Shown here one piece after another: positions 24,001-27,000 of a stretch of 64,000 bases of DNA. How positions within the stretch are numbered: the first letter of the stretch is position 1; every line of letters begins with the position of its first letter. The position numbers were made by a program. The stretch comes from Candidatus Metalachnospira sp. (GTDB lineage Bacteria > Bacillota > Clostridia > Lachnospirales > Anaerotignaceae): positions 3,664 to 67,663 of the forward strand of contig JAYFPN010000018.1 of assembly GCA_034927755.1 (NCBI GenBank), written 5' to 3'.

Positions 24001-27000
24001 AATCGGTGCAAACTTTAATAAAACTGTTTCCTGTATCTCATGCAGCTTCACTGTTCCGTCAGGTGCTGATGGAGGATTCTATGCAAACTGCGTTTGCGGG
24101 AATTCCTGCAAGCTATTCAAATGAATTTAAAGAGTATATGGGTGTTACATTCAAATTTGGTAGCTATGATGTCTCACCGTGGGTCAGTATTTTGATTTTG
24201 GTATTTACAGCAGCTATATTTTATGGCTTGTCACTTTTAAACATGTCCAGAAAAAGCAAATAGTGATATAAAAAACACCTCATTCCTAAAATACTTTTCG
24301 GGAATGAGGTGCATTTGCCGTTATCTTCTTTTGTTTTTTTCTTTTATAAAGTTCTTCATGTTTTTCATACCGCCGATATCCTTAAACATAATATTAAGCT
24401 TTTCGCTTTCAAGCTGTCTGGAAGAAAGTCCTTCATATTTAGCCTCACGTTTAAGCTTCAGATAGTTTTTAAATCGACGCTCATCAAGCTCGCCTGTTTC
24501 TATAGCGTTTAAAACTGCACACCCCGGTTCATTTGTATGGGTGCAGTCACGAAAACGGCAGTGCGCTGTCAGCTCATCTATATCTGCAAACGATTTGGAC
24601 AAATCAGACGATTCGGCACCAAGCTCACGCATACCGGGAGTATCTATCACAACCCCGCCCGTGGGCAGTGCAAAAAGTTCTCTTCTTGTAGTTGTATGCC
24701 TGCCTTTATCGTCATTTCTAAGTCCCGATGTTGAAAGCAGTTCCTTTCCTGCAAGCCTATTTATAAGTGTTGATTTCCCTACTCCGGATGAACCGATGAA
24801 GGAGGCAGTAACTCCGGGCTTTAAATATGAAAGCAGTTCGTCACAGGAAGCTTGGTCAAAGCTTGAAGTCACAATTACATCTGCACCAAGTGCGACATTT
24901 GAGATTTCCGCCAAAACAGCTGGCAGGTTAGCACATAAATCCGACTTGGTCAACACCACTGCAGGCATTGCAAGGCTGTTGTAAGCAACTGATAGATAAC
25001 GCTCCAAACGGCTTAAGTTATAGTCATTGTTGAGAGACATGCAGATGAAAACAATGTCGATATTTGCAGCAACTACCTGCATTTCATTGTCATTGCCCAC
25101 AGCTGTTCGTTCAAATAAACTTTTTCTCGTCAGAACGTTATGGATTACAGCATTGCCCGAATGCTCGTCATTACGGTCAACCATAACAAAATCACCTACA
25201 GCCGGATAATCGGACAGGCAATTGACGTTATATCTGAATTTTCCTGAAATTTCAGCTAAGAATTCATTCTGTTCGGTAACGATTTTATACATATCTTTAT
25301 ATTGAGAAATCACTCTTGCCAAATGTAAATCGGGATAGAGAGTTGCTTCTGCAAAATAGCGCTCGCTTGCGCCGTATTTTTTTAAATTGTTCAAAATATT
25401 TTACCTCCGTTTTGATTTTGTACCGGTGGGAGGTATTATGCAATCGGTTTTATTTTACACATACCTCCGTTTTGCATACAATATCCGAAGCTTTTGCTGT
25501 ATTCATCATAAATAAACATCTCCTTTTCTTAATTATTATTTACTTATTATACAATAAATTCAAAGTATATACAATATTTTAAAGGTAGGTATCGTTTTTA
25601 TTGATACCTACCTTTAAAATGCGAATTTTTAGTTAAAAGCAAATATCCTGTCTTGTTCAGACAGGATACTAAGATGGAAGGATTTATGAAGAAATTTTTA
25701 TCAGTTTTTCTGCTGATAGTTATATTTTAAAGTAACCTTATGAACTGTATATATACAAGTTGTGAACAATTTGTAAATAAAAATTTGTTTTGTTAAGACT
25801 ATTTTAATTTAACTATATAGATTTGGTTAATTCACTGTTTGTATATTTACAAAAGCTATAATACCTTATTATCTGGGGCTATTATTAGGCCGTCTATTAT
25901 TAGACCATCTATTGTTGGCTGATCTATTATTTGCCGGCGTAGTCATTTCCTGCGTAGTCATTTCCGGTGTAGTTGTTCCGGGTGTAGTCGTTTCAGGTAC
26001 AGTCGTTCCAGGTGTAGTTGTTCCGGGCGTAGCCATTTCTGGCGTAGCCATTTCTGGCGTAGCCATTACAGGTGCAGTCGTTTCAGGTGCAGTCGTTCCA
26101 GGTGTAGTGGTTCCTGCATTCTGCGGGATGTCCTCCAGATCATTATAATCCACAATAGCCACTGAGCCGTCATCTCTTAGTATTTTATACTTGTTAAAAA
26201 TGTCACCGGACAAAACATATGGTGAATTTCCATAATCTTGCAAAACAGCCACTACCTCACCCGTACTTTTCTCTATCTTTTTTGCGAGCATATATAGACC
26301 CCAATCATTATCCCAGTAGTAAGTCTCAGTTATAGTACGTTTTGCCTGTTCAAGAAAATCACTGTCTACCGGTCTGATTCTGCTGCTATGTTTATCCGAA
26401 GTACTAAAAACCTGATCTTTTACAACGGTTATCGTTTTGTAATCTTCTATGGCATTTACTTTGCTGGTCTGTATAACCCTGCACCACTTCTTTACTCCTT
26501 CATGGTAGCAATCATTCCACCAGCTTTCAAGGTTCTCATCAAAACTTAAAACATTTTTAAACTTGCCGTTTAGATAAAAATATGCTCTTAAAATACTACT
26601 GTTTTCCAATGCACCGACGGACTGATTACTTCTTTCTCTGAATAAAATTACATCATTTGCTGCACCGTTGGGACGGAAAATTTTTATATTGTCCACTCCG
26701 GAGAAATGTGCTACCCCACCTGAATATTCATAGCCGTTTTCACCCAAAGTGTATACAGTCATGATACAGTTATCACTGCCAAAGCAGACTGTTATGACAG
26801 CATCATTATTGCCGTTTCCTATTATATTTCCGTAATTCACGCGCACCGATGTAGCATCTGCAGCATTATATATGTCAGTATTGCCTGTATCCTGAAGTAT
26901 AGCGGCAGCTATTTTCTCCCTGTTTGTGTCTGAATTGGGATTGGTTAAATCTTTAATACTTTCCATAAATATATAGCGGCGTGCTTACTTCCCAATTGTA

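Follow-up and report, generated by a model that had tools for sequence, protein, structure and literature searches.

A 64-kb stretch of the Candidatus Metalachnospira sp. contig JAYFPN010000018.1 (the window; positions given below are those of this stretch) carries on its minus strand rsgA2, a gene specifying an accessory RsgA/YjeQ-family GTPase, preceded by a leader that contains a short upstream open reading frame (uORF). Comparative and thermodynamic analyses of this leader and of its relatives make it probable that it is a uORF-dependent translational switch, which sets the expression of RsgA2 according to the position of the ribosome on the uORF. Three segments of the transcript would compete for pairing: an arm within the uORF that bears the GGAGG of a Shine–Dalgarno (SD) sequence (segment B), an anti-SD CCUCC arm (segment C) and the true SD of rsgA2 (segment D).

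Competing pairings in the rsgA2 leader

The elements located in the window, in the order in which they are transcribed, are the following.

25520–25526, minus strand: SD of the uORF, AAAGGAG, 10 nucleotides (nt) before the ATG; the SD and a spacing of 9–10 nt are kept in the family alignment A1
25450–25509, minus strand: uORF of 19 codons plus TAA, encoding MMNTAKASDIVCKTEVCVK; ATG at 25509, TAA at 25452–25450
25477–25485, minus strand: codons GAT ATT GTA (D-I-V), an instance of the conserved [E/D]-I-V motif and the putative sensor (codon counts over 46 loci)
25469–25476, minus strand: 8-nt spacer from the V codon to the base of the hairpin
25455–25468, minus strand: 5′ arm of hairpin H1, GGAGGUAUGUGUAA, an SD-like decoy within the uORF (minimum free energy (MFE) fold, covariation)
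25437–25478, minus strand: lineage-specific alternative stem, formed by UAUGCAAAACGG (25478–25467) and CCGAUUGCAUA (25447–25437)
25429–25443, minus strand: 3′ arm of H1, UUGCAUAAUACCUCC, which carries the anti-SD CCUCC at 25433–25429 (fold, covariation); CCUCC shows little or no variation in alignments A1 and A2
25402–25408, minus strand: SD of rsgA2, GGAGGTA, 9 nt before the TTG start at 25394
24321–25394, minus strand: rsgA2, a 357-amino-acid (aa) accessory RsgA/YjeQ-family GTPase with a TTG start (PF03193, TIGR00157)

An original prediction, made from the window alone, had proposed a ribosome-binding site and a 19-aa leader ORF on this strand, together with one anti-SD able to pair either with an arm inside that ORF or with the SD of rsgA. 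Both proposals were borne out, the first by the uORF and its SD as listed, the second by the location of the elements, by the MFE fold and by the helix core obtained with RNAalifold (see below). The anti-SD CCUCC, which is part of the arm ATACCTCC (in RNA, AUACCUCC; 25436–25429), can pair with the decoy arm, whose GGAGGTAT occupies 25468–25461, or with the rsgA2 SD. In the MFE fold of the leader (−29.8 kcal/mol, z = −2.3) it is the internal GGAGGUAU arm that pairs with the anti-SD arm; taken separately, H1 amounts to −15.6 kcal/mol and the H2 region (anti-SD:SD) to −9.6 kcal/mol. The 13-mer CAAAACGGAGGTA, whose repetition had also been predicted, occurs exactly twice in the window, at 25474–25462 within the uORF and at 25414–25402 over the true SD, while no occurrence was expected from 100 shuffles. 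No T-run follows the hairpin, either in the sequence or in a terminator scan, so in the window the hairpin is not a transcription terminator and acts on the SD; an intrinsic terminator between uORF and rsgA2 is absent from the window, a version with a terminator being found only in the class 2 relatives described below.

The further alternative stem that had been predicted, TATGCAAAACGG with CCGATTGCATA, is present in the window as a duplex of −10.8 kcal/mol (z = −3.3 against shuffles) and is kept in the closest relative (locus L016) through a compensatory change from C-G to U-A, but it does not extend to the family. As a general element, pairing between the anti-SD arm and the stretch of motif plus spacer, this stem included, was considered and rejected: it was significant in seven of 42 leaders (mean z = −0.6) and is lineage-specific.

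Conservation of the leader and covariation of its decoy hairpin

The 220 nt upstream of 80 RsgA2 loci were inspected, and detailed counts were taken from 46 loci. A lack of leader conservation among homologs would have told against the original prediction, but conservation was found: around 50 of the 80 loci, from at least seven phyla, share a leader of the type present in the window (class 1). Its carriers belong to the Clostridia, Negativicutes, Bacilli, Planctomycetota, Victivallales, Synergistaceae and Armatimonadota, and it is also present on a Fusobacteriota plasmid and on a Peptoclostridium megaplasmid. The layout consists of an SD, 9–10 nt, a start codon (ATG, GTG or TTG) and a uORF of 16–21 codons in which [E/D]-I-V is followed by a spacer and by the hairpin. 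The internal GGAGG opens the 5′ arm of this hairpin, its 3′ arm ends in CCUCC, and the uORF stop codon, which is TAA in 44 of the 46 loci, lies in its loop. The spacer between the V codon and the hairpin measures 8 nt in 40 of the 46 loci and 9 nt in the other six. The SD of rsgA2 is found 25–30 nt beyond the hairpin, or farther in a few loci where an extra hairpin has been inserted, and rsgA2 starts with TTG in 40 of the 46. The SD-to-ATG spacer of the uORF is itself conserved in alignment A1 (GGAG-uUGuUGuuuu-AUG); the TTG triplets within it are too near the SD to be start codons.

In 36 of 40 loci, as against the one-third expected, the start codon defined by the SD of the uORF sets the frame in which [E/D]-I-V is read. 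The first codon of the motif is GAG in 28 of the 46 loci and GAT in 14, Ile is specified by ATT in 36, and Val by GTA in 30, GTG in six, GTT in four and GTC in three. Since the motif is kept in frame while the Ile and Val codons vary at their third positions, this comparison indicates that the uORF stretch is actually read as codons.

Folding the leader and looking for covariation among homologs had been proposed as a check on the original prediction. RNAalifold, applied to a MAFFT alignment, returned as its sole consensus helix the 5-base-pair (bp) anti-SD:SD core, so hairpin B:C was examined on anchored segments with a fixed register. Beyond the GGAGG:CCUCC core, the flanks of B and C showed a mean complementarity z of −2.84, with 71 of 78 sequences below −1.64. 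The paired fraction over the non-core pairs was 0.63, compared with a shuffle mean of 0.535 (maximum 0.579) and with lower values in slid registers, and the cells with double changes numbered 76, compared with 36. In the fixed register, one position appears as U-A in 21 sequences, A-U in 17 and G-U in 13, and another as G-C in 26 and A-U in 12. The core itself covaries in outliers, becoming GGAGA:UCUCC in Peptoclostridium, while in Listeria an anti-SD GCUCC accompanies an SD GGAGC. Judged on these alignments, hairpin B:C is supported by covariation. B:C was also the more stable helix in 42 of the 46 loci, with a mean of −17.2 kcal/mol compared with −12.2 kcal/mol for C:D. The competing pairings are thus real, and uORF, peptide motif and hairpin are conserved across phyla, in keeping with the leader-peptide switch sequestering an SD that had been predicted.

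A helix termed P0, between the E-I-V codons and the stretch that follows the anti-SD, was seen in the window and in Bacilli; it was not found family-wide (mean z = −0.23, significant in five of 46 loci) and was therefore dropped as a general element. A search of Rfam 15 gave no match to the window leader up to E = 1, and none up to E = 0.1 to the class 1, 2 and 3 leaders of loci L040, L024, L098 and L104.

SD accessibility and the position of the ribosome

A ribosome was modelled as an unpaired footprint shifted codon by codon along the uORF; that this footprint extends 13 nt from the P site (+13) is an assumption. When no ribosome was present, the mean probability that the rsgA2 SD of class 1 leaders is unpaired was 0.48, and values of 0.49 and 0.51 were obtained with the E or the I of the motif in the P site. 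Once V was in the P site the probability was 0.19; it was 0.06 at the next codon and 0.04 for a terminating ribosome. The class 3 leaders, which have a shorter uORF (see below), gave values of 0.35–0.40 that dropped to 0.13 (median 0.02) with the stop codon in the A site. According to this profile, a ribosome can advance no farther than [E/D]-I-V if the SD is to stay open. Under the modelled footprint, the 8–9 nt spacer puts the leading edge of the ribosome at the base of the GC-rich hairpin.

The modelled accessibility points to a sensor of ribosome traffic and stalling, and we infer that ribosomes are held at [E/D]-I-V and that the switch would operate in vivo in the following direction. B:C is the stronger hairpin and, when closed, would leave the SD in segment D free. 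In a healthy cell, ribosomes recruited by the near-optimal SD of the uORF would traverse segment B and terminate in the hairpin loop; segment C, once freed, would close D, and rsgA2 would be OFF. If a ribosome were instead held at [E/D]-I-V, with the base of the hairpin at its leading edge, B:C would stay closed and the SD would be open (ON). The ON state might also arise when few ribosomes load on the uORF, B:C again being closed and the SD open. In class 2 leaders the same output, a stall leading to ON, would be reached through antitermination.

Other leader architectures and gene families

Eight RsgA2 loci contained a different arrangement (class 2), in which a mini-uORF of the form (TTG or GTG) GAG ATT GT(T or C) CTG (TAA or TAG), that is, Met-Glu-Ile-Val-Leu-stop, is followed by a long stem and an intrinsic terminator. 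In RNA free of ribosomes, an extended stem hides the SD and start codon of this mini-uORF, and the terminator is formed. A modelled ribosome on the uORF frees a strand that resembles the 3′ arm of the terminator. When the MFE fold was recomputed with the ribosome represented as a mask, the terminator was still predicted in most sequences, so the antitermination reading rests on which strand is freed and not on the MFE. As modelled in this way, class 2 is a transcription attenuator responding to dwell time.

A pattern combining motif, hairpin and anti-SD was then used to search metagenomes and 201 Clostridia genomes, the reversed pattern serving as a control. This search retrieved class 3 leaders, in which a uORF of 11–12 codons ending in E/D-I-V-x-stop lies directly before a GGGAGG...CCUCCC hairpin that is followed by an AGGAGG SD. 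The genes downstream of these leaders are not rsgA; they encode either a 208-aa YhbS-like GNAT acetyltransferase or a 141-aa zinc-ribbon protein with an RNHCP domain. The 201 Clostridia genomes yielded nine genuine matches (four for RsgA2, three for GNAT and two for RNHCP) compared with three for the reversed control, and the leader family was present in ∼4% of these sampled genomes. The genome from which the window derives contained no further copy of the leader and no GNAT or RNHCP homologs.

RsgA2 is usually encoded in a monocistronic unit, although the same GNAT family follows it in four loci and an S-adenosylmethionine (SAM) methyltransferase in four others. Given the shared leader and the linkage of GNAT and methyltransferase genes to rsgA2, RsgA2, GNAT, RNHCP and the methyltransferase look like one functional module answering one signal. 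In loci L020, L048, L058, L088, L024 and L031, the methyltransferases and GNAT proteins encoded downstream of rsgA2 share the N-terminal sequence M-E-(Y/N)-x-(K/R)-(S/N)-N-K-Y-(D/E)-x-x-L-V-R despite belonging to different enzyme families, and the downstream gene starts 1–2 nt past the rsgA2 stop codon.

Two loci, L048 and L058, have a different region upstream of rsgA2, with an anti-SD-like AACCTCCTG and a longer, structured-looking element (AACGGA...TCCGTT), which may be a fourth leader type. In Listeria monocytogenes NCTC7974 (locus L217, 1300–1500), a second rsgA adjoins pnp and has a diverged leader comprising an 18-codon uORF, MAIVKMENLIINTGVFYL, a hairpin, GGGGGUAU...AUGCUCCC, and an anti-SD GCUCC that fits the altered SD GGAGC. 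Listeria would be a tractable model organism in which to test the leader family.

Alternative explanations

Several observations weigh against a switch governed by ribosome position, for which the evidence is comparative or thermodynamic throughout. The free RNA is predicted to be ON, so the OFF state needs continuous translation of the uORF, which the model assumes; likewise, the accessibility calculated with V in the P site depends on the assumed footprint. Past its 5-bp core the anti-SD:SD helix is weakly supported (flank z of about −0.4), and pairing with CCUCC is to be expected of any strong SD. In addition, the motif is constrained at the nucleotide level in a way that sensing of the peptide alone leaves unexplained: for Glu, GAG is used in 28 loci and GAA never, and a G ends the codon before the motif in 38 of 46 loci. 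Finally, variants of the motif occur (E-S-V, Q-S-V, E-L-V and E-I-N), and the Listeria leader has no [E/D]-I-V at the expected spacing.

Part of this evidence would suit a constitutive translational damper, in which uORF and anti-SD keep RsgA2 low, or inversely coupled to initiation capacity, with no specific stall, the motif being kept for RNA pairing or for efficient entry into the hairpin. The free RNA is already about half open and any ribosome past V closes the SD, the TTG with which rsgA2 starts in most class 1 loci is a weak start codon, and the motif is biased at the nucleotide level (GAG but never GAA, and a G before it); moreover, the window sequence allows the anti-SD arm to pair with motif and spacer. 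However, the motif is retained in three architectures, one of which is the five-codon mini-uORF with a terminator, where only the dwell time on the uORF can matter. Its predominantly in-frame position and the fixed distance of 8–9 nt to the hairpin also speak against a damper, and the A:C and P0 pairings are not family-wide. We regard this explanation as rather unlikely.

More doubtful still is that the leader senses branched-chain aminoacyl-tRNA, such that slow decoding of Ile and Val (and of Leu in MEIVL) during starvation, or upon inhibition of IleRS or ValRS, would hold the ribosome and turn the genes ON. The identity of the conserved codons (Ile and Val), the Met-Glu-Ile-Val-Leu peptide of class 2 and the fact that a ribosome awaiting Val in its A site occupies the last ON-compatible position all agree with this idea. 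Yet each of these amino acids has a single codon, which sets the motif apart from classical ilv or leu leaders, several members have Ser, Leu or Val in place of Ile, and conservation of the acidic residue equals that of I and V; nor are the genes for RsgA2, GNAT and RNHCP concerned with amino-acid biosynthesis or transport.

It is very improbable that the leader is an RNA-only element with an incidental uORF, whose hairpin would bind a protein, for instance RsgA2 or a ribosomal protein exerting feedback, or a ligand, as a riboswitch does. The base of the hairpin does mimic the SD:anti-SD duplex of the 30S platform, and its core bases are invariant rather than covarying. However, leaders of this kind stand before three gene families that are unrelated, so autoregulation by RsgA2 is excluded, and the uORF has kept its start codon, reading frame, length and stop. 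Moreover, no Rfam family matches, and the loop and flanks are short and variable, with no conserved pocket-like region seen.

RsgA2 and its distribution

The product of the window gene matched PF03193 (E = 2e-45; 155 bits, cut-off 30) and TIGR00157 (160.5 bits, cut-off 100), and its best solved relatives are the RsgA proteins of Pseudomonas and Escherichia coli. The permuted GTPase motifs are intact in the translated sequence (G4 LTKSD, G1 GSSGVGKST, the G2 stretch GRHTTT and G3 DTPG), and a C-terminal zinc finger, CRFRDCTHTNEPGC, has the form CxxxxCxH...C; both the GTPase motifs and the finger align with those of the housekeeping copy. The OB-fold domain PF16745 (RsgA_N) was not reported for this protein, whereas it was for the housekeeping copy and for a few RsgA2 homologs; residues 28–86 of RsgA2 do align with the OB region of the housekeeping RsgA.

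That the window copy is a paralog had been part of the original prediction, as had the placement of the housekeeping gene in the prkC–rpe cluster, and the genome agreed with it on both counts. A second rsgA, specifying a 293-aa protein 26% identical to the window copy, is present on another contig (C18), where it is flanked by a gene for a PASTA-domain kinase on one side and by rpe and a thiamine pyrophosphokinase gene on the other. The cluster prkC / rsgA / rpe is the canonical position of rsgA (cpgA/yloQ) in Firmicutes, and the window gene lies outside it. The window ORF is a genuine RsgA/YjeQ GTPase by its family matches and, with the housekeeping gene at its canonical site elsewhere and an identity of 26% between the two, an accessory paralog, RsgA2.

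Homologs of ∼357 aa are patchily distributed, being present in 10 of 41 related genomes, and yet extend across many phyla. Some are on plasmids, such as those from a Fusobacteriota and from Streptomyces. RsgA2 thus has the profile of an accessory, patchy and sometimes mobile paralog that resistance paralogs such as HflXr, Tet(M)/Tet(O) and the ARE ABC-F proteins show. A search of NCBIfam gave no match to resistance models beyond a noise-level one to the P-loop of ABC-F. On the Streptomyces plasmid, the neighbours of rsgA are a Tn3 transposase gene on one side and, on the other, a gene for a methyltransferase/N-acetyltransferase fusion. The fusion was considered as an ortholog of the methyltransferase and GNAT found in Firmicutes and was set aside as an analogy only, its methyltransferase part being 24% identical (E = 1e-7) and its GNAT part giving no match. 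On plasmid pMGMM7 of Lysinibacillus fusiformis (locus L218), no uORF leader can be recognised before an RsgA2-like gene, behind which fosM (fosfomycin resistance) and a gene for a HAD hydrolase lie on the same strand.

Candidate trigger and comparison with known systems

Antibiotics that target the ribosome are classically sensed by leader-peptide switches, and the genes under such control have repeatedly proved to specify resistance or rescue factors (Erm, Cat, ABC-F, HflXr). For the rsgA2 leader we infer, as the most plausible trigger, a fault in decoding or translocation brought about by an antibiotic acting on the ribosome or by defective 30S subunits; an antibiotic, the inducer supposed in the original prediction, is a plausible signal by analogy with erm, cat, hflXr and toiL. 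As the class 2 peptide has only five residues, the sensor would be at the peptidyl transferase centre, in the A site or in decoding or translocation, and not deep in the exit tunnel. Unwinding of the hairpin must begin at the motif, which suggests that the leader is sensitive to the translocation or helicase competence of the 30S subunit. Sensing of this competence would fit a regulon headed by a 30S GTPase.

Like the attenuators of ermC, ermB and cat-86/cmlA, the leader is short and translated from an SD of its own, its peptide contains a conserved motif, and alternative pairings gate a downstream SD, such that the position of the ribosome is read out as gene expression. The number of pairing segments differs, being four in ermC, two in cat and three in the rsgA2 leader (decoy SD, anti-SD and SD). 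So does the readout: in ermC and cat a stalled ribosome melts a hairpin and frees the SD, whereas in the modelled rsgA2 leader the ON state keeps B:C intact and it is the melting of B:C that closes the SD. The parallel with erm and cat drawn in the original prediction therefore applies to leader-peptide control with mutually exclusive pairings but not to the three-segment topology, in which a stalled ribosome would keep the decoy hairpin closed. Nor does [E/D]-I-V resemble IFVI, RLR and other +x+ motifs, or the motifs of the cat/cmlA leaders. The targets of erm and cat attenuation are resistance enzymes, which the targets of the rsgA2-type leader are not known to be.

A three-way competition involving a short leader ORF, a decoy SD, a single anti-SD and the true SD also appears in the model (SD1/anti-SD/SD2) proposed for the aminoglycoside-responsive leader of integron aac/aad genes, which is disputed in the literature. 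That model invokes direct binding of the drug to the RNA, while nothing in the rsgA2 leader suggests a ligand pocket, and no sequence similarity between the two leaders was found.

The whiB7 gene is itself controlled by a uORF attenuator. In Streptomyces coelicolor, the second RsgA/EngC, SCO6149, is WblC/WhiB7-dependent and induced by tetracycline, and the WblC/WhiB7 translation-stress regulon includes, besides SCO6149, GNAT acetyltransferases (PMC7157823). By analogy, SCO6149 is a precedent for a stress-induced RsgA paralog. The difference is that WhiB7/WblC is a transcription factor relaying the signal to many promoters, whereas here each gene has a cis-acting uORF switch of its own. Another comparison is provided by the hflXr leader of Listeria (rli80) and the uORFC-6-1 motif upstream of hflX in Bacillales (PMC8632094). 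These are again uORF leaders of Firmicutes, placed before a paralog or copy of a ribosome-associated GTPase and proposed to sense stalled ribosomes; they have an Arg-Leu-Arg motif and a terminator, whereas the motif of the rsgA2 leader is [E/D]-I-V and its action, in the case of the window, is on the SD. HflX, moreover, is a factor of the 50S/70S ribosome and RsgA of the 30S subunit. In E. coli, stalling on the toiL uORF of topAI-yjhQ by several classes of ribosome-targeting drugs leads to downstream expression (PMC12121999). The rsgA2 leader would resemble toiL in coupling a uORF stall to expression, and toiL differs from it in being Gram-negative and Rho-dependent and in its peptide and structure.

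Full-text literature searches returned no description of this leader, which appears to be an undescribed case of leader-peptide control in which the motif and the regulon are new and the three-way, decoy-SD topology is read the other way round from erm. We know of no established role in stress or resistance for any of the three controlled families (RsgA2, GNAT and RNHCP). As a tentative and more far-reaching proposal, the [E/D]-I-V leaders might define an unrecognised, cis-regulated translation-stress module (RsgA2, YhbS-like GNAT, RNHCP and sometimes the SAM methyltransferase) with a new arrest site that gauges the decoding, translocation or helicase competence of the 30S subunit. At this site a very short nascent peptide, or its codons, would sit where the ribosome must begin to unwind a GC-rich hairpin mimicking the SD:anti-SD duplex. 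RsgA2 would then be a factor for the protection or repair of the 30S subunit, the small-subunit counterpart of HflXr, Tet(M) and ABC-F. Should the switch respond to a drug or to defective 30S subunits, it would represent a new arrest motif, offer the first regulatory handle on the function of an accessory RsgA and provide candidate 30S-directed tolerance factors.

Transcription unit and gene neighbourhood

Upstream of the leader, the following features were located.

25546–25574, minus strand: putative sigma-A promoter read from the sequence, with −35 TTGTAT (25574–25569), a 17-nt spacer and −10 TATAAT (25551–25546)
25575–25670, minus strand: two hairpins upstream of the rsgA2 promoter (terminator scan)

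A sigma-A promoter had been predicted here, and among the predicted elements, all of which are present, it is the one weak point; its −10 hexamer is perfect, while the −35 matches the consensus at three of six positions. The arrangement TTGTAT-N17-TATAAT is also found in the nearest relative (L016), and a consensus promoter scan lists at this site only a weaker, overlapping TTGAAT/AATAAT. The hairpin at 25670–25642 (minus strand) is the terminator of the gene upstream of the leader. With terminator-like hairpins just upstream of them, the leader and rsgA2 would be isolated from upstream transcription and appear to form their own transcription unit. The second hairpin, at 25621–25575, is a nearly perfect 20-bp palindrome, AAAGGTAGGTATC...GATACCTACCTTT, which lies between that terminator and the rsgA2 promoter and has no clear T-run on the minus strand.

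The neighbours of rsgA2 in the window are a gene whose product has no Pfam match on one side and a convergent ABC transporter on the other. The former, directly upstream of the leader, is an ORF of 365 aa (25869–26966, minus strand) that gave no Pfam match at E ≤ 0.001. Farther upstream, a sub-threshold match to the preQ1-I riboswitch (27615–27664, minus strand; 22.4 bits, gathering score 39, E = 0.69) overlaps the 5′ end annotated for the ORF of a QueT transporter (27129–27650, minus strand). QueT is a classic gene context of the preQ1-I riboswitch; given this context, the match may be real and the TTG start of QueT may have been annotated too far upstream.

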